Shown here piece by piece: positions 249 to 63,950 of a stretch of 64,000 nt of DNA. How positions within the stretch are numbered: position 1 is the stretch's first letter; each line of letters begins with the position of its first letter. The DNA lies in assembly GCF_004010195.1 (NCBI RefSeq), contig NC_057718.1:60196137-60260136 (forward strand), given 5' to 3'. A program made the translations under genes and the position numbers. The notes beneath the pieces are model-generated. The model did not search any database. It saw nothing but the letters and a program-made list of their open reading frames with translations, and had not been told where the DNA came from. The DNA is from Chiloscyllium plagiosum (Eukaryota).

Positions 249-452
249 AAGAGAGTGGTGCTGGAAAAGCACAGCAAGTCGGGCAGCAGCCGAAGAGCAG
301 GAAAATCGACATTTTGGGCAAAAGCCCTTCATCAAGGATTATTTTTGCCCGAAACTTCTTGCTCCTCGGATGCTGCCTGACCTGCTAAGCTTTTCCAGCA
401 CCACACTCTTGATTCTAATCTCTAGCATCTGCAGTTCTCAATTTTGCCTAGT
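249..452 (+). mobile_element. Palindromic non-autonomous PLE-type element (inverted terminal repeat + terminal repeat) with degenerate hammerhead centre
   Basis: Arms gagtggtgctggaaaagc...gcttttccagcaccacactc are inverted repeats. The 15-bp direct repeat tgatttctatgcttc lies at 234-248 and 453-467. The minus strand reads TTGATGA-AGGGC-TTTT-GCCC-AAAA-TGTC, a decayed hammerhead. Confidence 0.8.
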
Positions 453-5555: not shown

Positions 5556-7084
5556 ACTAACACTTTGTGGTTTTCCAAATGTTAACTTGCATACCATGAA
5601 GACCAGATTCTGTTGAGTCAGATATTCACATCCTGAAACAAATGTCACAAAAATAATCCTACTGTTTTGAAGTAAATTAATGGCAGGGAGAAAATTCTAT
5701 GGGTCATCAATACCCTATGAAATTCAATCAACATATTTATATCTCCTTAGAGCAGAGAACCCACAGAGGAGATTTAAAATTGGTGTTTAAAATTAGGAAG
5801 GATTTTTGGAGAGTAAATAAAGTGGAACAGCTTTTAATGTCTGAACAATTGATAACCATAAGGCACAGATCATATTTGACAATGGAACCAAAAGCAAGAT
5901 GAAGCATAATTTTGCATGAGTAAAATAATATGTATGCTAGCAAACTGCAATGAAACTATCAGTGAGTCAGCATTTATGAAGAGAGGAAGAGTTAACATTT
6001 TAAGGTATTGCCTTTCTTTCAGACTTTTCTCTAAACTACTTGTAGTACCTATTGCAGAGTTCATGCTTCCTCTGATCAGATTGGTGCAGTTACACCTCAG
6101 AAAGGCACATGTGCTCATTAAAAATATTGTTTCAGTACCCATTTCTCATGGTCCCTACGACCAAGTGATTGGATATATGCAGTGGAATGTAGATGTTAAT
6201 ATTGCATTATGGCACAGATTCCAGACGAAACAGGCTTGCACCTTTAAGATAGTTACATGACATCATAACATGTGATTTTCTATCTTACCTTCAGTCACTG
6301 TTTCTGTGCAATTAAGTCATTGCAGTGTGCTTAGTCACTATGCATGCATAATATACAACATCAGTAGGAAAATAACCCACATTATGTGTATAAGTTTGTG
6401 ATATTGTACCCATGTAAATTATGTGATTAATAAACTTCAAGATATCTGACACAACAGGACCTGGTCGTCATGGTATATGCTATGCAGGCTAACATAAAGA
6501 AAACCACAAAGTGTATCATAGTGGTAGTACATTAAAAGTTCTTTGTAATGGCTGTAAGGTTGAACAAGTGATAGAAGTCTGGCAGTTGTGAAATTTCAAC
6601 AGGTCAACCATATACCTGTTTGAGTTCAGAACTGAGATTCCCAGCTACAAGCAAAGCTAAAGGCTAGAAAGCCGGAGTGAAGCATATTGACATCTATCTC
6701 TTTTGGAGAAAACAAACAATAGTTTATAAGAGACCAAAGACAGCTCCATTTGAAAGATGACTCTTATATGGTGCTGAAAAGACAGCTCCAACCTAATAAA
6801 CTGATTCTTGAATAGGAAAAAAGAGAGAAAAAAGTAAGAGAATAGTTTTATATATCAACAAACCTTACCTGTTCTCAATCATCAGTTGGTTCCATCATCT
6901 GGACACTTGAAAAAAGTTGCAAAGGCAAAGAGAAGATTCACACATCATGTCATCATTGCTATTTTCTCACTGAGGATGCCATCTAAAGGTACAAGCCTGC
7001 AACTTAAAAGAACAGCTACTTTAGTGCAAAAATGACAGAAAAAGCAGGGAAGCCAAGATTCCAAATAATATTTTCTACATCTAA

Positions 7085-8843: not shown

Positions 8844-9592
8844 CAAAAAACTTCCCTGGAGAGTTGGTTGGCTGGCTGCTGTGGCTCAGATTGGTGTCAA
8901 CATTATGGATTTGTTCCCAATTTTCGCTGGTGTGGATTTCGGATCATCTCCTTACCATAGCCATGACTGTGGCACTTTAGCTAGGATCTGCCATTGGATA
9001 GAGGACAGAGGTAGTTACTTCTCACCCTTGGTTTCCCTCTTATTATGGTATGAAATTCGCAATGGTCAACTACAAGTTTTTGATTTTAAAACTTAACCAC
9101 TTTATTTATTTTCTTTATTTTGTCACAATCTGGGAACTTTTGTTGGCAATTAAAGAGGAGCCCTTGTTGAAATAGATTCAAAGCCAAAAAGGTTACAGAC
9201 ACTGTATGGCCTTTTATGCATTTTCAATACTTCGATGTTTTCATTCCTGATCTTCAGCATCAGTACAATTTTGCTTTTTAGCTATAACCAGAATTTGTAA
9301 ATTATTAAGGGTGTTGTAATACAAAAAGGCATATGATTAAACTCATGTAATGGGCACCAAATTAATTTGATTTTTAGGAAGAGTTACTGGGATTTTCCTC
9401 ATCAAAGTGAAAAAAAAACCCTCCTGCTCTACTCCTCTTGAATGAGACATTTTTAAAAAATTCATTCATTCATGAGGGCATCACTGACTGGACCAGCATT
9501 TATTGCCCATCCCTAATGCCCCAGAGGGCAGTTAAGAGTCAACCACATCGCTGTGGGTCCAGAGTTACAGGTAGGCCAGACCACGTAAGGAG

Positions 9593-9798
9593 CTGAAAAT
9601 GTCTTGCTGGAAAAGCGCAGCAGGTCAGGCAGCATCCACGGAGCAGGAGAATCGACATTTCGGGCATGAGCCCTTCTTCAGGATCATGCCCGAAATGTCG
9701 AATCTCCTGCTCCTTGGATGCTGCCTGACCTGCTGCGCTTTTCCAGCAACACATTTTCAGCTCTGATCTCCAGCATCTGCAGTCCTCACTTTCTCCTC
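9593..9798 (+). mobile_element. Young palindromic PLE-type element with hammerhead centre
   Basis: Near-perfect inverted arms (agctgaaaatgtcttgctggaaaagcgcagcaggtcaggcagcatcc / ggatgctgcctgacctgctgcgcttttccagcaacacattttcagct). A perfect 17-bp TSD ccagaccacgtaaggag lies at 9576-9592 and 9799-9815. Confidence 0.9.
9650..9685 (-). ncRNA. Minimal type I hammerhead ribozyme motif
   Basis: The minus strand reads GATC-CTGAAGA-A-GGGC-TCAT-GCCC-GAAA-TGTC-GATT: conserved core, 4-bp stem II, stem I GATC/GATT and a GUC cleavage triplet. Helix III is ATGT, a CpG-decayed ACGT. Confidence 0.75.
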
Positions 9799-10237
9799 CC
9801 AGACCACGTAAGGAGTGCAGTTTCCTTCCCTGAAGGGCATTCATGATCTAGATAGTTTTTTTTTCCCAACAATTTACAATAGATTCATGGTCATCATTAG
9901 ACTTTTAACTGCAATTTCTAAAATTGAACTCAAATTCCACCATCCGTCCTAGTCGGTTTCAAACCCGGGTCACCATCTGGGTCTCTGGAATTAACTCACA
10001 AAACGTGCAACACGGTATTAAACATTAGATATGATTTAGCAATTGGACAACAATTGTTCAATAATCCCGAGTGTGTGAAGAATTATAATGATAAACAATT
10101 TAAGATTACAGTCTGGCTTGCAATGTTGTGCACTTGCATGTACTGGAAGCTACATATATTAAAATATATGGGCCTGTTATTTGTAAACAGAAAGAACATA
10201 TACAGGCACCGTGTCTGTTGCAATTCGACATAAAAGC

Positions 10238-21436: not shown

Positions 21437-21810
21437 CATTAGCAAGTGTGGTTGCCTTGGCTTGGGAAGGATGGTTAGTCTGGTCCCTTACATCTCTTAC
21501 ATTGTGAGTGTTCACAAACAATAAACAAGACCCCTAGTGACTGGACCATTTCATGAACAAATTGATCCAGTCAGGCTTTGCCCCTTATATGACAAGCATT
21601 TAGGAACACTAAGCAAGACCGCACATTAGCAAGTGTGGTTGCCTTGGCTTGGGAAGGATGGTTAGTCTGGTCCCTTACATCCCTTACATTGTGAGTGTTC
21701 ACAAACAATAAACAAGACCCCTAGTGACTGGACCATTTCATGAACAAATTGATCCAGTCAGGCTTTGTCCCTTATATGACAAGCATTTAGGAACACTAAG
21801 CAAGACCGCA
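21437..21810. repeat. Tandem duplication, 2 x 187 bp
   Basis: 21437-21623 and 21624-21810 differ at two positions. Confidence 0.95.
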
Positions 21811-27020: not shown

Positions 27021-27212
27021 GGAGAAAATCCTAGAGCAACTTAACAGGCTTGCCAGTATCTGCAGAGTGAGAAAAACAGGGTTCAAGCTTCGAATCCGAC
27101 ATGACTTCTTCAAAACATTAAATCTGCTTCTCTGTCCACACATGCTACATGCTACATTTTTCTGACATTTGCTGTTTTTATTTTGGATTTGCATCATCTA
27201 CAGTATTTTGGT
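27021..27212 (+). mobile_element. Old palindromic PLE-type element (second family)
   Basis: The left arm (caacttaacaggcttgccagtatctgcagagtgagaaaaacagggtt) is an imperfect inverse of the right arm, and gacttcttca at the centre is a reverse hammerhead core. Confidence 0.55.
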
Positions 27213-28619
27213 TCACTAAATTGAAGGTACTGATGCATGAATTAACAAACGCAATATTGACATGTATGATAAGGTTTTATTTTGCTGTCTACACTTCTGG
27301 GAGATACGTAACAATACAAGAATAAATCCCAGATTATCACCAATTTCCTAGCAGACTCACTTACACTGCCACATCAAGCTGAAATCCATAAAGTCCTTCA
27401 AAAATCATTCCCCTAAATCTGAGGTCTTACAGATCTAACTTTTATCAGTTAAGCCCACCTTGGCAACTCCTGTTTGTTTAAATCTTCAAAAGTCCTGTCT
27501 CTTCTATCTTCTTATTTTTGAAGAGAGCACAAGTTCTCACAAACATCCTCTTAATGGCTAACATCGTACAGTCTTTCTATGTTCTTCACGGATGTAGCTA
27601 TGTTGTTCCTCCAAACAACATCAATTTCTTTGTCTTTCTCTCTCTTTGAATGTCAAAGGCTGCTGCCCAGGTTCTGTAAGGTTGCCTGCTAGACTGTGAA
27701 ATATATTATGATAATCAAGTCAATTTCATTTAAGTTTTTTTCCCCTTGCTAACTCGATCATGCAGATCTGTTTCAAAACAGGGTGGCTTGATATGACCTC
27801 ACTGTCTCCCTTAAAATATTCCGTTTCACTGTGAGCCAAAGGAGATATTTCAAAATACAACCTGGAAAGTTCGGCATTGAAAACATTATATCCTTAAAAA
27901 ATACTCTTAAAAATTGAAATGTAATTAATATATGTAGATCTGGGAGTCAAGCTCTCATTCTAATAACTTCTCTCAAAGAAGATCATAAAATGTAAAATGT
28001 TTAAAAGCCTGCTATGAAAGGAATTAGAAAATGTGTATAAATTGCTTTAGCTTGCTGGGGATGGGTTGTACGGATTATCACCTTATCCATCTCAAGTACT
28101 ATCTCTTAAATAACTCCTTCATTTGTGAATATAGGTTAAACTGTCATTGATCACACTTACCATAACATGCAAATAATTTTATTGATGGCATTTGTGCCAT
28201 CCACAAGAATAATTTTTGTAAGCATTTGTGAACAATTTAGTGTTGCACATTAATCCACAGAGCAGTGTTTGCCAGGAGGGCTTCTATTTCTGCCACTGTG
28301 TCACACCATTCTCATAACTCAGCATTGCTATAGGCCTGCAAAGAAAGTGTAGACAACTTTCAGACATCAGCTCCTTTAACATCCACAAACTTTCACTTCT
28401 AAGCTGCACAGTCATTGTAACTACCTACAGTTGAAGTTAAGGTAGCCCTGTATCTACCTTTGTTATGGCTTGACCCTATTAAGAGAAGTGCCTTATGCTG
28501 TTTGCTATCAGGTATCTGCATCTGACCTGAGATAAGGTTGCTGATGTTTTCACAGCTGTGGCCAAGCAAAACAACAGCAGGTACATAGTCCAAAGGTTTG
28601 TTATGTTTGCATTACTGGA

Positions 28620-32250: not shown

Positions 32251-32528
32251 CAAACTATAGTCTCCTGTGAGATGTGTTTAATTGTGGGCTACAAATTGCA
32301 AGATTCACCAGATATAATCCAGATTCATTAAAGTATGTAAAAGTGAAATAATTAAGGATTATTGTAATTTTGACTGCCACTGGCAATGGATATCCACTTG
32401 CTCAATTTTGAAGGAAGTCTTCTTTCTGGACACTGCAAATGTCTGTGTCAACTTGATGGGAATCTCTGAGAGACTGGTGCTTGGTCACTTTCAGCAATTT
32501 TACTTGCTGTCATTATACCTTCAAGTAT

Positions 32529-32930
32529 AAACAGAAATTGCTGGAGAAACTCTGCATCTGTACATCTGATCTGTACATCAAACTGCCTAAAATTAATTTG
32601 GGTCAATTAACATTGGAACTTCTCAATGTTGTGCTTAATGATTTGTAAACCTACCTCAGGATGACTTCTCATACTAGCAATGAAACTGTCACTGTTCTGT
32701 AACATTCAAGTAATTGCAAACATATGGCAAATCTGTAAGGAATTGTTCTATAGTGATCTAGTGAACCACTGCTGCATTGTGGGTCTTCTTCCATTCTGAA
32801 GCAGAGCCAAATTGAACTCAAAACATTCACTTTGTTTCTCACGCCATAGATGCTGCCAGGCTTGCTAAGTTTGCCCAGCATTTTCTGTTTTTATTTTAGA
32901 TTTTCAGCATCCACAGTATTTTGTTTTCAA
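32529..32930 (+). mobile_element. Old PLE-type element with short inverted 5' arm; hammerhead remnant at 32793-32831
   Basis: aaacagaaattgctggagaaact is the inverse of agtttgcccagcattttctgttt. The remnant reads ATT-CTGAAGCA-GAG..CTC-AAAAC-ATT. Confidence 0.55.
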
Positions 32931-33967
32931 TAATTTGGATATACATTATGTAGGGGATATCAACTCATTCAAGCTGGATTGGTTGGCTTATCTCCTCTGT
33001 ACTGTGCAGTTATAGATATTTGAAGAGAAGGATACTGTTACTGCTGCGGATAGTCTTTCAGCTATTGCTACTTCTCTTGTTCTTCATCTAAAGTGCAGAT
33101 TACCCATGCTGCCCTGAGGCTTATAGCTACTAAGTGCAGATCAAAAGCAAAATCTTCCAAGAAAGTAGAAATAACCTGAAAGCACAGACAGTAATAAAAT
33201 GCTACAAAATTAAGTTGAGGCTCTTAATGTTGTGATTCCTCTCTGCTGTGCATAATGATTTGTGAACCTTTTCCAGCATGATTTGACATACTTGCATTAA
33301 AACTGACAACGTTGTTTCACATTCAGCTAATTGAAAAGATATAATAAACATTTAAAGGCATTGTGCTTTAGCCATCACTGATATTAATGCAGTGTATGGA
33401 CTTTGTAGCTTTTTTTTCTATACCTCCTATAATAGGGCAGTGGCCTGTCTCCAAAAGAACGTGGACAGGTCATCTTTTCACAGCATGGTTACTCACCAGC
33501 CCATATATGAGTCTTATATTCTATTTAACATCCATGTAATTAGATAAAGGAGAGAAATGAAAAAGTCAGAACTTGAAAAAGAATATTTAACTAACTACAT
33601 AAATGAAATGATTTTGGTGTCACTGACTGACTAGATCATGCTTGGCTCATTGAATGATCTCTCTTTGAATGGAATAAATTGTCTTAATCAGGAAAGGTGT
33701 GCAACGACGTACACAATGCAGTCACCATCAGAACTCAAGTCATTGATAACATAGTGCTAATATTTTTCCACACGGCTGACCTGCTAAAAGGAGAAGATGT
33801 GTCTCTGTCTTCTCTTCTAATGCAGCAGTGATTTCCTGGATCCAACCATGCATGAATTCATGACATGCAAATTGGTAGATGACATTTGGATGAACTCGAT
33901 GGCTCAGGATATCAACAGAACAGTCTCGTTACAGCTACCAGCAAAGTTGCCATCACAATGCAGCGCA

Positions 33968-43870: not shown

Positions 43871-44400
43871 CAATAGAAAAGCTGTGCAAAAATTTAAGGG
43901 GGAATTCTAGAATACGCAAACCACATTCTAATAAATAAGGAAAATTCTAAAGGATGAGCCAGCCATTGTAGTTAACTAACAATGTCAAAGATAGCATCAA
44001 TTTTGAAGAAAATACATATAGTTATGCAAAGCTAGGTGACAGACCAGCAGAATAGACAGAATATAAAATGGCAAATAACTGTTAAAAGATTAATAAGGGA
44101 AAAATTATAGTAAGAGAGAAAATGAGCCAAAAATATAAAACATGTTAGAAAAAATATCTTCAGATATTTGAAAAAGAAGACTGAACATATTAAGTGTTGG
44201 TCCTAAAGGAAATGAATCTGGAGAATCAGCAACGAGGACAAAGAGATGGCAGACAACTTGAACAGGTATTTTGCATTGGTCTTCGTGAGAAACAATACAA
44301 GTGCAATCTCAGAAATAGCTGTAAATCCAGAAAAGAAAGGAAGGGAGGATCTCAAGAAAATTACAATTACTGGGGAAGTGAGACTGAGTAAATTCTTGAA

Positions 44401-44521
44401 AGCTCATGCCTGAAACGTTGACTCTCCTGCTCCTCGATTGCCGCCTGATCTGCTGTGCTTTTCCAATGCCACATATTTTGACTCTGACTCTCCACCATCT
44501 GCAGTCCTTACTTTCTCCTAG
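44401..44521 (+). mobile_element. Single-arm copy of the hammerhead-bearing PLE-type element
   Basis: Starts in stem II (agctcatgcctgaaacgttg) and ends ctttctcctag. It is flanked by the degenerate TSD tgagtaaatt(c/g)ttg at 44385 and 44522. Confidence 0.8.
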
Positions 44522-46209
44522 TGAGTAAATTGTTGGAACTGTGAGCTGATGAATCCCAAAGTGCTGATGGATTTTGTCCTAGTACATTAAAAGAGATAAT
44601 CGGTAAAATAGTTGATGCATTGGTTTTAATTTTCCAAAACTTGTTAGAATCAGGAGGTTTCTTTCAATTGGAAAATAACTAACATAATCCTTCATTCAAA
44701 AAGAGAAAGAAGCAGAAATTGTAGGCCAGTTAGCTCAACATTTATTTCAGAGATAATATTGGAAACTATTAATAGAGTTTTTAATCAAAGGATACTTGGA
44801 TAAGTTCAAGATAATCAGACAGACCTACCATGATGTTGTCAAAGGGAAATTGTGTTTAACTAATTTATTGGAGTTCTTTGAAGAAGTAACTTGTGTTGAA
44901 AATAAAGGAGAATCAGTTGATGTAGATTTCCAGAAGGCATTTGATAAGGTGCCACATCAGGGTTTATTGTTCATGCAGTAGTTGGAATAATATTAGCATA
45001 GAAGATTGGCTTGCTAACAGGAAGCTGGGCCCAGGAATAAACAGACCTTTTTCAGCCTAGCAGCATGCCATGAGTAGACTACAACTGGGGTCAGTGCTGG
45101 GGCATCAACACTTTCCAATTTGTGTAAATGATTTGGAACTAAAGATTTTGTAGCTAAATTTGCTGATGACATGAAGCTAGGTTGGAAACTGAATTGTGAA
45201 GTGGACATAATGAGCCTACAAAGGGATGCAGATAGGTAAAGTGAGTGGGTAAAAATCTGACAAATGGCGTACAATGTCAAAAAGTGTAAAATTGTTCATC
45301 TTGGCAGAGACAATAAAAAAAGAGGCAAATTATCCAAATTGTGAAAGGCTGCAGTGCTGTGAAATATGGAGAGGTCTGGGTGATGGATCACAGAAATATA
45401 GTTTGCAGGTACAGCAAGTAATCAGGAAAACTCATAGAATGTTATGTTTTATTGCAAGAACAGTTGAATGCAAGAGGGAGACTGTTATGTTTCAGTTGTA
45501 TAGAACATTGGTGAAAGTGCATTGGAGTATTGTATACAGTATTGGTCACTGTCCTTATGGAAGGATGTTAATACTTTGGAAGCAGTTCAGAAAATGTTTA
45601 CTAGACAAACACCCAGAATGAAGAAAGGCTAGACATGCTGGGTCTGTATCCTCTGGAGTTTAGAAGAGTCAGAGATGACTTAATTGAAACGTATAAGATC
45701 CTGAGTGGACTTGACCTGCTCGATTTTGAAAACATGTTTCCTCATGTGGGAGAATTGAGAACTTGAGGTCACAGCTTATAAATAAGAGGTCACCTATTTA
45801 AAACAGAGATGCGAAAACATGTTTCTCTCTCAGAGGATTGTGAGTCTTTAGAATTCCTTTGTACAAACGGCAGTGGATGCAAAATGTTTAAGTGTTTTTA
45901 AGGCAGAGGTATTATGAACTCTTGATTACCGAGGGAATATTGGGGATATTATTCCAGCTTTACGTTATCACTATCACAACTACCTCAACATTACTGTACT
46001 CCGAAAGTAGTCAATCCAGGATCTTGTTAACATTAACAGTTACTCCCAGATAATATTGTCAAAACTCACTCTAATCCATCACATCAAGTAATAGTCACTG
46101 CAAGACCAAATTATTGTTAATACAGGCACTCCAGTATCATACGGTTGATAACTCAGTCATTTTAATATTGTGCTACAATTAGTGGAATCATTATACCTTA
46201 AGACAATGA

Positions 46210-48050: not shown

Positions 48051-48848
48051 TCTTTTTAATTACTTTATTAAATGCATTAAAAATCATAAAATTGGCATGA
48101 TCAAATATTGTAGGAATTGGATTGATGGAGCAATGTATCAATGGATGCTTTGACTAATAATGCTCTGACAAGGTGAAAAATATTTGTATTAAATAAATGA
48201 TAATGTATATTTTATCAAAGTTGAAGTTTTCTGAAATCTGTCTCAAATCCAAATTTTATTAAATTTTGTTGCTTGAAGTAAAAGCCCATTTAAAAAGGTC
48301 ATGCTCCAATCATCTTATGTTGAAATACTTCCTAACAAAAGGGCAGATGGGTGGGAGAGGGGGTGGGGTTGGCTTGTTAATCACAAATGAAATCAAATCG
48401 ATTGCAGAAATGATATAGAGTCAGAAGACATGGAATCTGTGTGGGTAAGGTTGAGAAAAGGTAAAAGAACCTAATGGGAGTACAAGGCCTCCTAACAGTA
48501 ATCAGGATGTGGGGCAGAAAATAATCCAGAAATAGAAAAGGCATGTGATAATGGCTCTATTATAAGAAAGACCTTATTATAATAGTCATGGGGAACTTCA
48601 ATATGCAGGTGGACTGCTGGAAGATTTCAAGAAAAGGAATTTGTAGAGTGTCGACGAGATTTATTTTCTTTTTGGAGCAGCTTGTGGCAGAGTCCACTGT
48701 GGAATGGGTGATTCTGGATTGGGTGATGTGTGATGAGTTAGACTTGATTAATGAGCTTAAGGTGAAGGAACCCTAGGAGGCAGTGACCATATTATGATAG
48801 AATTTACCCTGCGGTTTGAGAGAGAGAAGCTGGAATCAAACGTAGCTG

Positions 48849-49032: not shown

Positions 49033-49271
49033 CCTGCAGTCTTCTTCTTGCCCTCTCCGCCTCCACCCTACTCCGACCTATCACCCTCACCTTGACCTCT
49101 TTCCACCTATCACATTTCCAACGCCCCTCCTCCAAGTCCCTCCTCCCTACCTTTTATCTTCTCCTGCTGAACACTCTCTGCTCATTCCTGAAGAAGGGCC
49201 TGTGCCCGAAACATCGAATCTCCTGTTCCCTGGATGCTGCCTGACCTGCTGTGCTGTTCCAGCAATAAAGT
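49033..49271 (+). mobile_element. 3' end of a longer PLE-type element (pyrimidine-rich tract + terminal repeat)
   Basis: A C/T-rich tract followed by the same terminal-repeat sequence as the palindromes (ggatgctgcctgacctgctgtgctgttccagc). Confidence 0.75.
49184..49219 (+). ncRNA. Minimal type I hammerhead ribozyme motif
   Basis: ATTC-CTGAAGA-A-GGGC-CTGT-GCCC-GAAAC-ATC-GAAT: perfect stem I (ATTC/GAAT), stem II (GGGC/GCCC) and both core boxes. Helix III is ACAT, a CpG-decayed ACGT. Confidence 0.8.
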
Positions 49272-52200
49272 ATCACAAATGAAATCAAATCGATTGCAGA
49301 AATGATATAGAGTCAGAAGACATGGAATCTGTGTGGGTAAGGTTGAGAAAAGGTAAAAGATGGGAGTACAAGGCCTCCTAACAGTAATCAGGATGTGGGG
49401 CAGAAAATAATCCAGAAATAGAAAAGGCATGTGATAATGGCTCTATTATAAGAAAGACCTTATTATAATAGTCATGGGGAACTTCAATATGCAGGTGGAC
49501 TGCTGGAGGATTTCAAGAAAAGGAATTTGTAGGGTGTTGGCGAGATTTATTTTCTTTTTGGAGCAGCTTGTGGCAGAGTCCACTGTGGAACGGGTGATTC
49601 TGGATTGGGTGATGTGTGATGAGTTAGACTTGATTAATGAGCTTAAGGTGAAGGAACCCTAGGAGGCAGTGACCATATTATGATAGAATTTACCCTGAGG
49701 TTTGAGAGAGAGAAGCTGGAATCAAACGTAGCTGTATAACAACTGAGTAAAGATAATGACAAAGACATGAGGAAAGAGTTGGCTAGAGTTGATTGGAAGG
49801 GGATCCTAACAGGGAAGATGGTGGACCAGCAATGGCAGGTGTTTCTGGGGCCAATTCGGGAGGCACAGCAGAAATTCATCCCAAGGAAGAAGATGCATAC
49901 TAAGGGGAGGATGAGGTAACCATGGTTAACAAGAAAAGTCAGGGACTGCCTAAAAGCAAAAGATAAAGCATACAATGTAGTGAAGATTAGTGGGAATCCA
50001 GAGAATTGGGAAGCCTTTAAAAACCAGCAGACAACAACTAAAAAAGCAAGAAGGGGAAGAAGATGAAATATGAGGCGAAGCTAGCGGGTAATATAAAAGA
50101 AGATTATAAAAATTTTTTTAGAGATATGGAAAGCTAGAGACAGGTAAGTGTGGACATCCGACTGGGAAATGAGGTTGGAGAAGTACTAATGACGAACACA
50201 GAAATGGCAGAGGAACTTACATCAGTCTTCACAGTGAAAAAATACTAGTAGCATACCAGCACTTCAAACAAGTCAGGAGGAGAGGTGAATGTAGAAGCCA
50301 TCTCTAAAGAGAAGGTACTGGGGAAGTTGAAAGATCTGAAGGTGGATAAATCACCTGGGCTACATCCCCAGAGTTCTGAAGGAGATGGCTGAGAAGATTG
50401 TAGTTGCATTAGCTATACTCTGTCAGAAATGACTGGAGTTAGGGAGGGTCTCATATGACTGGAAGGAGGACAGCAGAAGACAGAAAATTATAGACTGGCT
50501 ATAGGCCTGGTTGTTGTTACATTTTTCGAGTTCATTATTAAGGATGAGATTGCGGAGTACTTGGAAGTGCATGGTAAACTAAGATTGAATCAGCATGGCT
50601 TCATCAAGTGCAAGTCATGCCCAACAAATCTGTTCGAATTCTTTGAGGAGATAATGAGCAAGTTAGACAAATGGGTTTCAGTGGGCATGATCTATTTAGA
50701 TTTCCAGAATGCCTTTGACAAGGTGCCACATGGGAAGCTGCTAAATAAGATAAAAGCACATGGTTTTAAGGGCAAAGAATTAGCAGAGATAGAGGATTAG
50801 TTGACTGGCAGAAGGCAGAGAGTGGGGAAAAAAGTGTTCTTGTTCAGGATGGCAGCCAGAGCCTTGTGTAGTTCTGCAGGGGTCTGTGTTAGGTCCATAA
50901 CAATACATGTTATACATTAATATCCGGATGAACGAACTGAAGGCATTGTTGATTAATTTGCAAATGACACTAAGATAGATGAAGGGATAGATAATATTGC
51001 AGAAGTGGAAGGGCTTGGACAGGCTAGAAAATTGGGCAAAATAGTGGCAGATGGAATACAACGTGCGCAAGTATGAGGTTATATATTTTTACAGGAAGAA
51101 TAGAGGCGTAGACTATTTTCTAAATGGAGGAAGGCTACAGAAATGTGAAACACAAACGGACTTAAGGAGTCTTGGATTCTCTGGAGGTTAACAGTTAGGA
51201 AAGAAAATGCAATATTAGCATTCATTTCAAGAGGGTTAGACTTACATTTAGACTAGAATACAACAGCAGAGATGTACTGCTGACGCTCTTTAAGGATCTG
51301 GTCAGACTGCATTTGGAATATTGTGAGCAGTTTTGAGCTCCACATCTGAGGATGGATTACTAGCATTGGAGGAGGTCCAGAGGAGGTTCACAGGAATGAC
51401 CCAGGGGATGAACGGCTTGTCATATGCAGGGCAGTCAAGGACTCAAGGTCTGTACTTGATGGATTTTAAAAGGATGCAGTGGGATCTTGTTGAAACTTAT
51501 AGAATAGAGACAGGCCTGGATAGAGTAGACATGTAGAAGATGTTTCCATTAGGAGGAGAAAGTAGCACAAGAGGGCACATTCTCAGAGTGAAAGGTTGAC
51601 CCTTTAGAAATGAGATGAGGAGGAATTTCTTCAGCCAGAGTGTGTGAATCTGTGGAACCCAATGATGCAGAAGGCTGTAGAGGACAAGACTTTGATTGCC
51701 TTTATGACAGGAATAGATAGGTTCTTGATTAGTGGGGGTTGAGAAACAAATTAGTCATGATTGAATGGTGGAGCAAGCCAAATGGGTATAATGACCTAAT
51801 TTTGTTCCAATGTCTTATGGCCTTATGACGTTATGGTCTCAAAATAAGTAGCAACGCATTCCATCAAATGGCAATGTTCCATAACTTTATTATTTTGACT
51901 GCTAAGCAATGCCAGCAGTAGGATTTTCTATCTATGGTAATTTAAAATTGTGACTATTGCTTCTTTTGGAAAAACATCTCATTATAAATTCAACCAAAAT
52001 GCTAAAACAGAGTTGTCCCCAGTAAGTTTGTTTTGATAAATTTTCTTTCAATAATACTTTGTCAATAATAAATATTTTCTCTATACTGATACTATAACAT
52101 TTCTATATGTTTATCTCATTAACATAACCCTCGTCCTTTGCATAATCTATCAATATGTAGTTATGGCTCTGCCTGTTGTCCACATTCAGGTAATCAGTCT

Positions 52201-53530: not shown

Positions 53531-53628
53531 CGAAAATAGAGATTTCTTGAGAAACTCAACAGGTTCAGCAGCATCAGTGGAGAGAAAGCAGAGTCAATAT
53601 TTTGGGTCCAGTGCCCTCTCCCCAAACT
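53531..53628 (-). mobile_element. Old PLE-type terminal repeat fragment (second family)
   Basis: gagaaactcaacaggttcagcagcatcagtggagagaaagcagagtcaatattttgggtcc is a reverse copy of the 1266/32796 repeat. Confidence 0.55.
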
Positions 53629-56029: not shown

Positions 56030-57485
56030 ATATAGTCAGAGATGTATAGCATGGAAACAGACCTTTCAGTCCAACTCATCCATGCCAACCAGATATCCCA
56101 ACCCAATCTCGTATCACCTACCAGAAACCGGCCCATATCCCTCCAAACTCTTCCAATTCATATACCCATCCAGATGCCTTTTAAATGTTGCAATTGTACC
56201 AGCCACCACCACTTCCTCTGGCAACTCATTCCACACATGCACTACCTTCTGCATGAAAACGTTGCCTCTTAGTTCTCTTTTATGTCTTTACCCTCTCACC
56301 CTAAACCTATTCCCTCTAGTTCTAGACTCCCCCACCCCAGATAAAAGACTGTGTCTATTTACCCTATCCATGTCCCTCATGATTTTATAAACCTCTATAA
56401 AGTCACCCCTCAGCCTCCAACACTCCAGAGAAAACAGCACTATTCAACCGCCGACTCTGACAATATCCTTGTAAATCTTTTCTGATCCCTTTCAAGTTTC
56501 ACAACATCCTTCTGAGAGGAAGGAGACCAGAATTGTACACAATATTCCAAAAGTGGCCTAACAAGGAGACCAGAATTGTACACAATATTCCAAAAGTGGC
56601 CTAACCAACGTCCTATACAGCCGCAACTCCTGTACTCAATACTGTAACCAATAAAGGAAAGCATACCAAACGCCATTTCACTATCCTATCTACCTGCGAC
56701 TCTATTTTCAAGGAGCTATGAATTTGCACTCCAAGGTCTCTTTGTTCAGCAACACTCCCTAGGACCTTCCATTAAGTGTTTAAGTCCTGCTGTGATTTGC
56801 TTTCCCAAAATGCAGCACCTGACATTTATCTGAATTAAACTCTATCTGCCACTCCTCAGCCCATTGGCCCATCTGATCAAGATCCCGCCGTAATCCGAGG
56901 TAACATTCTTTGCTGTCCACTATACCTCCAATTTTGGTGTCATCTGCAAACTTACTAACTATTGCTCTTATGCTCACATCCAAATAATTTATGTAAATGA
57001 CAAAAAGTAGAGGACCCAGCACCGATCCTTGTGGCATGCCACTGGTCACAGGCCTCCAGTCTGAAAAGAAACCCTCCACCACCAGCCTCTGTCTTCTACC
57101 TTTGAGCCAGTTCTGTATCAAAATGACTAGTTCTCCCTGTATTCCATGAGATCTAAGCTTGCTAACCAGTCTCCCATGGGGAACCTTGTTGAACGCCTTA
57201 CTGAAGTCCATATAGATCATGTCAACTGCTCTGTCCTCATCAATCCTCTTTGTTACTTCTTCAAAAAACTCAATCAAATTTGGGAGACATTATTTCCCAC
57301 ACACAAAACCATTTTGACTACCCCTAATCAGTTTTTGTTTTTCCAAATACATGGAAATCCTGTTCCTCAGGATTCCCTCCAACAACTTGCCCACCACCGA
57401 TGTCAGACACGCTGGTCGATTGTTCCCTGCCTTGTCCTTACCACCTTTCTTAAATAGTGGCACCTCGTTAGCCAACCTCCAATCT
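56030..57485 (-). mobile_element. CR1 LINE, RT to 3' end
   Basis: ORF 56780-57277(-) YMDFSKAFNKVPH..PQGSVLGPLLF.IYIN..FADDTK. A perfect 43-bp internal tandem duplication lies at 56520-56605. Confidence 0.95.
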
Positions 57486-58945: not shown

Positions 58946-60347
58946 AAAGGTTGGGAGGAACTAAAGAATACTAAGGCCATAAGCAAAATGGCACTGTGCA
59001 AATTGTTGGAACTGCATGCTGACAGGTCCTCAGAATGTGGTGGGAGTGGCTCCATCTTAGGGCCTTAAAAAAAGTGACCAGTGAAATAGTTGATTTGTAT
59101 TGATTTTCCAACTCTTAGATTCAGGAAATGTTCCATCGGTGAATATTACTCCTTTATTTGAAAATGTAGAGAGACAGAAGGCAGGGAACTACAGGCCAGT
59201 TAACTTAACATTTGACAGAGGGAGAATGTTAAAAAATATTGTTAATGATGTAACAGCAGGACACAGAACAATTCAAGGAAATAATGCAGAGTCAACATTG
59301 TTTTATGAAAGGGAAATCTTTCCGGGTGCTCTTTGAAGAAATAATAAGTGCTGTAGTTAAAGGAGAATAAGATATATTGCACTTGATTTCCAGAAGCCAT
59401 TTGATAATGGTTGATAGTGTAATAGATAACATGGTGGCATGGATAGAAGATTGACTAGCTAAATGGAAACAGAGAGTAAGCATAATTTCTTTTAATCTAC
59501 TTGACAAGATGTAGCACGTGGTGTACCATAGAGATCAATACATGGCCCTCATCATTTTGCTATTTATAGAAATGACTTGATGAAGGAACCAGTCATGGTG
59601 TTGCTAAATTTGCTGAAAACTTAGATATGGAGACAACTGCATTGTAAAGATGACATAAAGAAGCTACAAGTGTTATAAGTAAGTGGAGTGAATGGGAAAA
59701 GATCTGGCAAGTGGCTATAATGTAGGGAAAGGTGAAATTATCCACATTGGCAACAAGAATAAATAATGAGAGATTGCAGAGCTCTAACATGGAGAAGAAG
59801 CTTTATGACCCAGAGTATGAATCATGAAAGTTAGCAACCAAGTTTAGCAATTTATTAGGAAAGTTAATAGAAAGTTATTATTTGTTGCAGGGAGCATATA
59901 CATCAGTTATACATTACACTGGTGAGACAACATCTGGTATACTGCGTATAGCACTAGTCTGTTAATTTTATAAACTGTTTAAATGCATTGGAAGCTGTTC
60001 AGAGAAGGTTTACGAGACTAATGGAATATGTTGTGTTTTGAGGAAAGGTTGGATGGTATAGCTTTGAATCTACTAGATTTGAAAAGAGCAAGAGGTGACT
60101 TGATTGAAACATGTAAGATCCTGAAGAAGCTTGACTGGCAGATGCAGAAAAGCATGTTACCTCTTGTTCAATAATTTCTAACAAGTTGTAACTGTTTAAA
60201 AATAAAGTTTCTTTTATTTAAAACAGACACTAAGAGGATTTTTGTCTCTCAGAGGATCTTCTAAATTCCTCCTCAAAAGGCAATGGAAGCAGAGTCATTT
60301 ACTTTAGGGCAGAAGTGCATAGATTCTTGCTAAGCAAAGGGGTGAAA
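58946..60347 (+). mobile_element. Decayed CR1 (RT region to near 3' end)
   Basis: ITPLFE...KAGNYRPVNLT, AKFAE and LEAVQRRFTRL motifs. Confidence 0.8.
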
Positions 60348-60850
60348 GTTCAAAGTTTGTGAGAAGATTTGTAGCTCGGGTGCTCGTTGCTGTGGTTCTG
60401 TTCGCCGAGCTGGAAGTTTTTGTTGCAAACATTTCATCCCCTGTCTAAGTGACATCCTCAGTGCTTGGGAGCCTCCTGTCAAGCTCTTCTGTGGTGTTTC
60501 CTCCGGCATTTATAGTGGCCTGTCCCTGCCGCTTCCGGTTGTCAGTTTCAGCTGTCCGCTGTAGTGGCCGGTATATTGGGTCCAGGTCGATGTGTTTGTT
60601 GATGGAGTTTGTGGATGAGTACCATGCTTCTAGGAATTCCCTGGCTGTTCTTTGTTTGGCTTGCCCTATAATGGTAGTGTTGTCCCAGTCGAATTCATGT
60701 TGTTTGTCGTCTGCGTGTGTGGCTACTAGGGATAGCTGGTCGTGGCGTTTCGTGGCTAGTTGATGTTCGTGGATGCGGATCGTTAGCTGTCTTCCTGTTT
60801 GTCCTATATAGTGTTTTGTGCTGTCCTTGCATGGGATTCTGTACACTAGT
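60348..60850 (-). mobile_element. Penelope-like element 3' end encoding a GIY-YIG endonuclease domain
   Basis: Open frame VYRIPCKD..KHYIGQTGRQL.IRIHEH...HEFDWDN..I......REFLEAW....INKH (PLE GIY-YIG). CpG-rich, so young; 5'-truncated with no RT. Confidence 0.9.
60425..60464 (-). ncRNA. Minimal hammerhead ribozyme motif in the PLE terminal repeat
   Basis: The minus strand reads GCA-CTGAGGA-T-GTC-A-CTT-AGAC-AGG-G-GAT-GAAA-TGTT-TGC: stem I GCA/TGC, extended stem II with wobbles, both core boxes and a GUU triplet. Confidence 0.7.
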
Positions 60851-61359
60851 GCAATAAGTATGACAACCAAACATGTAATGCTGTTGTTTCCTGAAGTTGT
60901 GAAATAAAGTAATGGTTGATTGGAGTCAATTTGACTTTGGATGATAAAATATTATGGATTATTATCCAGATTTCATTATTTTACTTTGAGTTAAAGGATT
61001 ATTTCAATGTTTAACCACCTTATAATATTAACTTTGTTGACAGGTAATCAAATCAATAGCTCACGTTTTTGCATTAATCCAAACTCAAAATTACCCCCCT
61101 TCTGTTAAGAACTGGTGGTTGTTCAGTAATGTAACATTCCAGACATAGTAATTTCAATTCAGCATGGGTCTGGCAAGGAATTAATTGTTTATATTTTGGG
61201 ACATGTTTACCATACTGGGTGAGTTATTTTACCAAAGGTTACCAACAGTATGCATTAAACTATTGTCTTGTATTTTTCATTTTTTTAAAAAAATGTTTAA
61301 ACATACAATAGCAAGCAGTGTTCTTAGTTGGTTTCCCATGTTTCATCTTTCATAAAACA

Positions 61360-61979: not shown

Positions 61980-63950
61980 ATTACAGAATCACAGAATAGT
62001 TACAGTGCGGAAGGAGTCCATTCAGCTTTTATGTCTGCACTGGCTCTCTTCATATGAACTTGACATTTTCTGTGTTTACTCGTTCTCTTACAAATTGTTT
62101 CTATTTAAATAGTCATCCAATGCCTCTTGAAATGTCTCGTTGAATCTACCTCCACAACATGTTTAGGCAGTGCATTCAATACCCTAATTACTTGCTGACT
62201 GGACAATTTTTTTTTCTCACCACACATTTGCTTCTTTTGGAAACTACATTAAAACAGGACACTGTGGTTCATGATCTGTTTATGAATGGGAACAGTTTCT
62301 CCCTATTCACTCTGTCTTCCTTCCCACCTGATTTTGAAAATTATCAAATTTCCTGTGAGCCTTCACCTCTCCAAAGAAGTTCAGAGTCAGAGAGTCAGAG
62401 AATCACATGGCACAGAAACAGACCATTTGGCCCAAAGCATCCATGACGACTGGGTTTCCCAAACATAACTAGTCCCATTTGCCTGTGTTTGGCCCATATG
62501 CCTCTGAACCTTTCCTATTCATGAATCTATCCAATTGTCCTGAAATCTTTCCTCATAACCGAAGTGCATGCACTTGGAACCATTCTTATAGGTTTCCTCT
62601 GCATTCTCTCCAATACACTCACATCCTTCCAAAAGCGCGGTGCCCAGAACTATACATAATCCTGCAGAAGAGGTCTTGTATAAGTTTGACATAACATTCC
62701 TGCTCTTTGTACTCTGCCTGTATTTACAAAGCCTAGAATATTTTTTGCTTTATTAACACCTCTCTCCATTTGTCCTTTTAATCAACTAGGAGAAAGTGAA
62801 GACTGCAGATACTGGAGATCAGAGTCACAAAGTGTGGTGCTGGAAAAGCACAGCAAGTCCGGATGCATCTGAGGATGAGGAGAGTCGACATTTCGAGCAT
62901 GAGCTCTTCATCCTGATGAAAAGCTCATGATTGAAACATCAACTCTCCTGCTCCTCAGATGCTGCTTGACCGGCTGTGCTTTTCCAGCACCACACTTTGC
63001 AACTGTGCCACTTTTAATGCTTTAACACATACACACAGGTCTCAATGCTCCTGCATATCGTTTAGAATTGTACCCTTTGTTTTGTCTGTTACTCTGTATT
63101 CTTTGCACCAAAGTGTACTATATCACATTTCTCTGTGTGGAAATATATCTGCTAAATCTGCATCCATTCCATCAATGTGTAAATGTCCTTTAAGAGGTTT
63201 TACATTTTCCTCCTCACAGTTTCCAAAATTTTGTGTCATCTGCAAACTATGAAACTTCCCTCTGAACACCAAAATCTAGATTATTCATAAATATAAAAAG
63301 AAATTACTCTAAGCATGACTCCTGGGCAACTCATTATAAACCTTCTTGAAGTCCAAAAATACACATTAGCCATCACTCCTATTTCTTATCCCTTACCCAA
63401 TTTTGTATCCATAGTGCTTCAGTTCCTTACTTCACAAGCCTGTTGTGTGAAACTATATTGCATACCTTTTGGAAGTCCATGTACACTGCATCAACAACCT
63501 TCACTCCAACTATGTTATTAGCTCTACCAACAACTCCAGCGGGTTGGTTGACTCCCTTAACAAATCCATGCTGATTCTTCTGAATCAATCCACTTATTTG
63601 CGTATGACCATTAATTCTATCCCAATAATTGTTTCTAGAGGTTTCCTTATAAGTTAAACTGGTCTGCAATTGCTGGGCTGATCTTTGTAACCTCTTTTTA
63701 TCTGAACAAGAGCACAGTGTTTGCAATTCTCCAATCCTCTGGCAACATCCTCCATTCCGGAAATAATTGTTAGTGCCTCTGTAATTTACATTCTCATTTC
63801 CTTCAATATCATTGGATATGTCACATTTGGTCCACGAGTCGTATCAATTTTATGACCTAATATCTCCTCCTTAACAATTTTAAGTCCTTCTCATGACTAC
63901 ATTTTCTCTTCTGGTCTTGGGAGAATCTGCCTGGTAGGTAAAAAGACAGA
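61980..63950 (-). mobile_element. Decayed CR1 with nested CR1 tail (about 62385-62540) and palindromic element
   Basis: LIQKNQHGFVKG..DAVYMDFQK, reverse tgtgtcatctgcaaact (FADDT), and tail acagaatcacagaat. Confidence 0.8.
62785..63004 (-). mobile_element. Palindromic PLE-type element with hammerhead centre
   Basis: Inverted arms agtgtggtgctggaaaagcacagc / gctgtgcttttccagcaccacact around the centre gagctcttcatc-ctgatgaaaagctc. A degenerate flanking repeat cttttaat is present. Confidence 0.85.

Follow-up and report, generated by a model that had tools for sequence, protein, structure and literature searches.

Hammerhead-bearing palindromic repeats in Chiloscyllium plagiosum are probably dead-end insertion products of a Penelope-like retroelement

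Results

Repeat copies in the window

The window, a stretch of 64,000 nucleotides from Chiloscyllium plagiosum, holds five copies of one short repeat, together with an older relative and the 3' end of a different Penelope-like element (PLE). A 90% protein match to Chiloscyllium punctatum likewise points to a carpet shark or a near relative. Positions are counted from the first base of the window.

249-452, plus strand: copy 1, with an inverted arm (249-340) bearing a damaged hammerhead, a tail arm (343-452) and a duplication at 234-248 / 453-467
9576-9592: left target-site duplication of copy 2, 17 bp, the last 3 bases of which also prolong the inverted arm
9593-9684, minus strand: inverted, tail-less arm of copy 2, beginning 3 nt ahead of hammerhead C3
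9650-9685, minus strand: minimal type I hammerhead motif of copy 2, with C3 at 9681 and the predicted cut at 9654/9653
9685-9798, plus strand: tail-bearing arm of copy 2, 5'-truncated in loop II, with the tail at 9764-9798
9799-9815: right target-site duplication of copy 2
27028-27225, plus strand: older related family, head-to-head with the tail on one arm (nhmmer E 4e-4 and 6e-3)
44401-44521, plus strand: copy 4, a solo tail arm starting from stem II, inside a LINE remnant, with a 16-bp duplication at 44385-44400 / 44522-44537
49033-49271, plus strand: copy 5, non-palindromic and tail-less, with a whole hammerhead core (C3 at 49188), meeting an assembly gap
60360-60864, minus strand: a different Penelope-type 3' end (Poseidon-like PLE), in which a GIY-YIG frame precedes a decayed hammerhead motif lying about 95 nt from the end
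62780-63007 (left end approximate, also given as 62785), minus strand: copy 3, with a decayed duplication of which 8 bp are exact
62912 down to about 62780, minus strand: tail arm of copy 3
62912-63007, plus strand: tail-less arm of copy 3

The three palindromes (249-452, 9593-9798 and 62785-63007) and the single arm (44401-44521) described in an earlier, sequence-only reading were all recovered, with blastn E values of 1e-24 to 1e-47 between copies, but its list of four was incomplete, having overlooked the longer, non-palindromic fifth copy at 49033-49271. These stubs make up about 1.6% of the window (995 of 63,044 non-N bases). Upstream of its hammerhead, and before the assembly gap, copy 5 carries a pyrimidine-rich repeat of at least 150 nt. 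A 469-bp direct repeat (97.4%; 48380-48848 / 49272-49734) flanks the N gap and copy 5, and is likely to represent either two haplotypes joined in the scaffold, with and without the insertion, or an assembly artefact.

The palindromes are alike in size (204-228 bp), and each is bounded by a duplication. They are asymmetric, as had been claimed, with a one-sided tail of 35-42 nt in all three; the proposed common arm end is present as a tail, but in copy 2 (9593-9798) it finishes CTCCTC rather than CTCCTAG. The head-to-head, inverted and 5'-truncated arrangement occurs in three of the five window copies, and at four further joints in public sequencing runs. In copy 2 the arms are 95% complementary over 83 nt, and its RNA is predicted to fold as a single hairpin of -151.4 kcal/mol (z -18.6), a value equalled by none of 200 shuffles. 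Those two arms are 96% identical to one another, against at most 86% to any other copy, while arm-to-arm identity is 85% in copy 1 and 81% in copy 3, no closer than between copies. The mirror half is probably made anew at each insertion.

Two further details concern the tail end. The same six bases follow the tail CTAG in copies 1 and 3 (447-457; 62780-62790), overlapping the duplication in copy 1, which may reflect either a longer element end that pairs with the target, or a nuclease preference for ATT-containing sites of the kind described in PMC11167929. The tail end also resembles a 3' splice site (a pyrimidine run, then TAG) at 44505-44521 and at 62786-62803 on the minus strand, and in intronic copies could support exon capture.

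Target-site duplications

Flanking duplications are perfect in copy 1 (15/15) and copy 2 (17/17), each matched by 4 of 2924 random flank pairs, and nearly so in copy 4 (13/14, extending to 14/16), where 7 of 2924 random pairs score as high; around copy 3 only 8 bp are exact (p about 0.04). An empty site is available for copy 4, in that a paralogous LINE copy at 58946-59029 aligns ungapped with one copy of the duplication, whereas alignment of the same paralogue to the site with both copies requires a 16-nt gap; the duplication at copy 4 therefore arose at insertion. The long, variable duplications of 15-17 bp that had been proposed are thus perfect in copies 1 and 2 and proven by an empty site in copy 4, but weak in copy 3. 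Copy 5, the Poseidon-type end and the copies of the older family showed no duplication when their flanks were compared.

Short palindromes in high copy number would suit a MITE or another derivative of a DNA transposon, but the ends do not: exact terminal inverted repeats amount to 2, 0 and 0 nt, with 4-7 of the first 20 bases matching, and the duplications are long and variable instead of short and fixed. Solo arms exist besides. We rejected this origin on the end sequences, which lack symmetric terminal inverted repeats and a fixed short duplication, and regard its probability as negligible. The earlier reading had itself argued against DNA transposons and for hammerhead-bearing elements mobilised by PLEs; the absence of terminal inverted repeats and the long, variable duplications agree with Penelope-type retrotransposition, but its further notion of a non-autonomous palindromic family is not supported.

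Related elements and coding frames

The older family at 27028-27225 is a second family with the head-to-head, one-tailed anatomy. Older related families sharing this terminal layout were noted at 1270-1400, 5965-6026, 27028-27225, 32525-32935 and 53541-53625, and the one at 32525-32935 has its inverted end fragment separated from the tail arm by about 260 bp that are unrelated. Elsewhere the window contains two near-perfect tandem duplications, one of 187 bp at 21437-21810 and one of 43 bp at 56520-56605.

The GIY-YIG frame at 60360-60864 (PF01541, E 8.5e-4) is 87% identical to the reverse transcriptase (RT)-bearing Chiloscyllium protein P0025, and it is here alone, in another family than copies 1-5, that a terminal repeat was shown to be joined to such a frame. 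The frame also occurs as a fusion in a number of annotated isoforms of shark host proteins (P0029, P0030, P0034 and P0040). For the family of copies 1-5, the open frame of copy 5 had no protein matches, and no RT or GIY-YIG frame was linked to it. Pfam searches of 145 of the 301 frames (at least 70 aa) returned four LINE-type RT fragments, one GIY-YIG and two weak unrelated matches; tblastn with six Penelope proteins revealed no other convincing trace of a PLE in the window, and pattern scans of viral, metagenome and genome contigs gave no match. In sharks, such ends presumably follow a Neptune-type endonuclease frame.

The hammerhead motif

A strict minimal-hammerhead descriptor matched the window twice (9681, minus strand; 49188, plus strand), compared with one match in 200 Markov-null windows. 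The core is whole in two of eight arms, belonging to copies 2 and 5; in copy 1 the motif carries one inserted base and an altered G12, stem II has decayed in copy 3, and copy 4 is without the first core box. The minimal type I motif that had been placed at the centre of the copies does exist, but among the four copies originally listed it is whole only in 9593-9798, and it lies off-centre, in the tail-less arm. Likewise, the palindromic ACGU said to form helix III is missing from both whole-core copies, which have AUGU at 9681 and ACAU at 49188, but is present in 43-88% of the family sequence in public runs (position 49213), the commonest change, at 49213, restoring ACGU in the copy 5 alignment.

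Rfam hammerhead models gave no match; three matches at E<=1, to mir-1253, mir-2007 and U6, were rejected as falling under the gathering score. A covariance model built on the arms themselves recovered its training arms, by construction, and weak matches at 5988-6026, 32791 and 53590. Among the 40 of 67 variant rows listed, variation fell at none of 12 core positions and at five of eight free positions (Fisher p 0.004, for positions that are not independent and beside a stretch, 49233-49251, that is likewise invariant). Stem II is paired in 85.7% of cells, and at two of its pairs both partners have changed, probably in few events; helix I is paired in 56% of cells in an alignment that is partly out of register, with 4 bp possible in copies 1, 2 and 5 and no compensating row, among those listed, for the frequent 49218 A>T change. 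Since the core is spared of variants, ACGU is restored at 49213 and helix I is weak, we read the motif from its sequence as a real but decaying PLE-type hammerhead.

A transcript of these palindromes had been expected to form a hairpin capped by the ribozyme. The motif lies instead within the hairpin stem, across from the strand with the tail, and none of the three palindromes has a whole core on its tail-ending strand. When helices I and II are imposed in the fold prediction, the penalty is 32.7 kcal/mol for the complete 9593-9798 RNA as against 4.2 for the lone arm, and 8.9 as against 2.3 kcal/mol in copy 1. The hammerhead is best viewed as inherited terminal-repeat cargo, predicted not to fold within the hairpin.

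Abundance and RNA in public runs

Four of 24 listed public runs were compared with copy 5 only, on 308 bases. Matches to this region numbered 55,249 of 53,205,000 contigs in run X1, 18,795 of 23,558,182 contigs in X2, 7,194 of 2,290,627 contigs in X15 and 2,047 of 12,955,460 reads in X21. Upstream of its hammerhead, copy 5 consists of sequence that is high-copy in its own right, and reads of its subfamily run into the same tail, from which it follows that the palindromic, solo-arm and long forms all belong to a single repeat. RNA reads fall near equally on both strands (763 versus 1024 at 49231) and show no pile-up of starts or ends; the library is a poly(A) single-cell one, unsuited to small RNA. 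In this library (run X21, on copy 5) RNA ends are not piled at the predicted cut site. For copy 2, no RNA record is listed across 9560-9830.

Arm ends, centres and joints

Relative to C3, tail-less arms begin at -4, -3 and -1, tail arms at +13, +14 and +3, and the solo arm of copy 4 at +9 or +10. All seven arms with a visible 5' end cross the predicted cut (+28 from C3), as does copy 5, and because every such arm spans this site the templates were uncleaved. The 5' ends are not random, gathering at the hammerhead, which simple truncation does not explain; either a start site may lie there, or RT may stall. Centres differ in all three window palindromes, and among five joints listed from public runs the four that link opposite strands are all different (49182/49221, 49183/49233, 49184/49219 and 49193/49233).

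These observations bear on the proposal that the palindromes constitute a self-propagating, ribozyme-processed family resembling retrozymes. Their similar sizes, bounding duplications and hammerhead motif would fit, and a single contig of run X15 steps back 81 bases, from 49265 to 49185, giving one head-to-tail, hammerhead-to-end repeat. This sole joint is nonetheless off the cut site, as are the arm starts; the centres differ, the same sequence occurs also solo and in longer forms, and no array of the family is found among the six tandem-repeat rows of the window. A tail-ending strand without a whole core, and the 32.7 kcal/mol needed to fold the ribozyme in the hairpin, weigh further against it. 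We consider such a family very improbable, and the claim for it is not supported.

A second possibility is that a roughly 130-nt RNA, running from the hammerhead to the tail, issues from solo terminal repeats such as copy 5 and, as a true non-autonomous unit, is copied in trans by PLE proteins, the palindromes forming at insertion. Consistent with this, 5' ends cluster at the front edge of the hammerhead, where the tail-less arms begin at -4 to -1; 108 RNA reads and contigs (X15) have loose ends before 49184, and three joints fall at 49182-49184; and X21 read depth climbs from about 217 to 724 across 49165-49197. Non-LTR retrozymes have moreover been proposed to derive from pLTRs, according to bioRxiv 10.64898/2026.07.22.740005. 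Stalling of RT at the ribozyme would, however, give the same clustering, longer copies are also highly numerous, and RNA on both strands with no pile-up is what read-through would leave, albeit in a library that would miss small RNA. This short unit is thus a tentative proposition, which we doubt rather than favor.

The polarity of the arms speaks to how the inversion is made. In four of four palindromes the tail-less arm extends further 5' than the tail arm (p 1/16, weak), which fits priming from both target nicks. Inversion by snap-back self-priming, whether of cDNA or of antisense RNA, was put forward for Adineta PLEs in PMC3846280, and it would suit the short inverted microhomology seen at the centres, which takes the form of GATC in copy 2 and of a hairpin stem of 5 bp in copy 3. 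Snap-back of sense-templated cDNA, however, should leave the tail arm furthest 5', as we understand its prediction, and the opposite holds in four of four; snap-back of antisense RNA would account for the polarity, though not for the start sites on sense RNA seen in vitro (PMC11167929). We judge this route unlikely.

Discussion

Taken together, the stubs are likely to be insertions by an abundant carpet-shark retroelement of the Penelope-like kind that ended there, in which two hammerhead-bearing ends lie head to head within a 15-17 bp duplication. Four of the five defining features of a PLE terminal-repeat insertion are present, and the assignment is one of anatomy. On this account, nicks spaced about 15-17 nt from each other would be made in the two target strands by the GIY-YIG endonuclease. 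From each exposed end RT would then copy element RNA that is still uncleaved, entering it at two internal start sites whose spacing equals one tail (35-42 nt). Synthesis of either cDNA would end at the hammerhead or within it, and microhomology of 0-5 nt would link the two; where only one end is copied from, solo arms such as 44401-44521 would result, and longer copying would leave forms such as 49033-49271. We infer the priming of both nicks from two start sites, drawing on the four of four palindromes and one in vitro study in another clade.

The fixed polarity may have a more specific cause, which we offer with considerable hesitation: an RT dimer might prime from both nicks on a short RNA whose start lies just ahead of the hammerhead, such that the tail-less cDNA always reaches the RNA 5' end, while the tail cDNA stalls in the ribozyme. 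If true, a great number of independent stubs from shark genomes would settle how PLE inverted insertions form, and the roughly 130-nt, hammerhead-headed RNA would be a template of its own. The origin of PLE inverted insertions is called undefined in PMC8557442, and these minimal insertions represent a large natural test set for it. They also matter for annotation, as the stubs mimic MITEs or microRNA precursors, and the best Rfam match is a miRNA model; intronic copies would give 80-90 bp of double-stranded RNA.

Comparison with known systems

Literature searches, which lay outside Repbase, Dfam and subscription journals, found no account of this shark family and nothing on point regarding MITE misclassification or twin priming in PLEs. 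The non-LTR retrozymes (PMC7229834; bioRxiv 10.64898/2026.07.22.740005) resemble the stubs in being non-coding and pLTR-related, with a type I hammerhead and long duplications. They consist, however, of head-to-tail units with a ribozyme each and a circular RNA, whereas the shark stubs join their copies head to head and hold no more than one whole motif. Retrozymes are also marked by a canonical type I hammerhead whose helices have the usual sizes; the shark motif is minimal and matched no Rfam hammerhead model.

Minimal hammerheads of metazoan PLEs occur as opposite-strand pairs, 100-700 bp apart, in PMC4209133, and share with the shark motif CUGANGA, the extra base before stem II, G10.1-C11.1 and GAAA, as well as the palindromic ACGU that replaces helix III, a putative short helix I, solo copies and the opposite-strand pairing itself. 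The shark elements differ in that stem II has only 4 bp and one of the two motifs of a palindrome is shortened. A search of the PMC4209133 supplement returned no shark example.

For Poseidon of Anolis carolinensis, PMC11167929 reports that both target strands are cut and extended in vitro, that two internal starts bound the tail, and that the RNA is uncleaved. Although Poseidon is another family, and the shark mechanism is read from footprints only, the two have in common a tail between two 3' end points, an uncleaved template and no RNA ends at the cut.

In published PLE insertions a 5'-truncated copy lies inverted and one end bears a tail of 30-40 bp (PMC8557442, PMC3846280 and PMC8969392). 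Compared with complex insertions of EN+ PLEs (PMC8557442 and PMC3846280), the shark stubs consist of two ends only (about 200 bp), with the coding frame of the family not seen, and their duplications measure 15-17 bp as against 8-10 bp in Adineta PLEs (PMC3846280). They share with these insertions the head-to-head copy, the one-sided tail, a variable duplication, a terminal-repeat hammerhead and heavy 5' truncation. The pattern is thus likely to be the ordinary, already described footprint of PLE insertion, and not a new self-copying RNA element.
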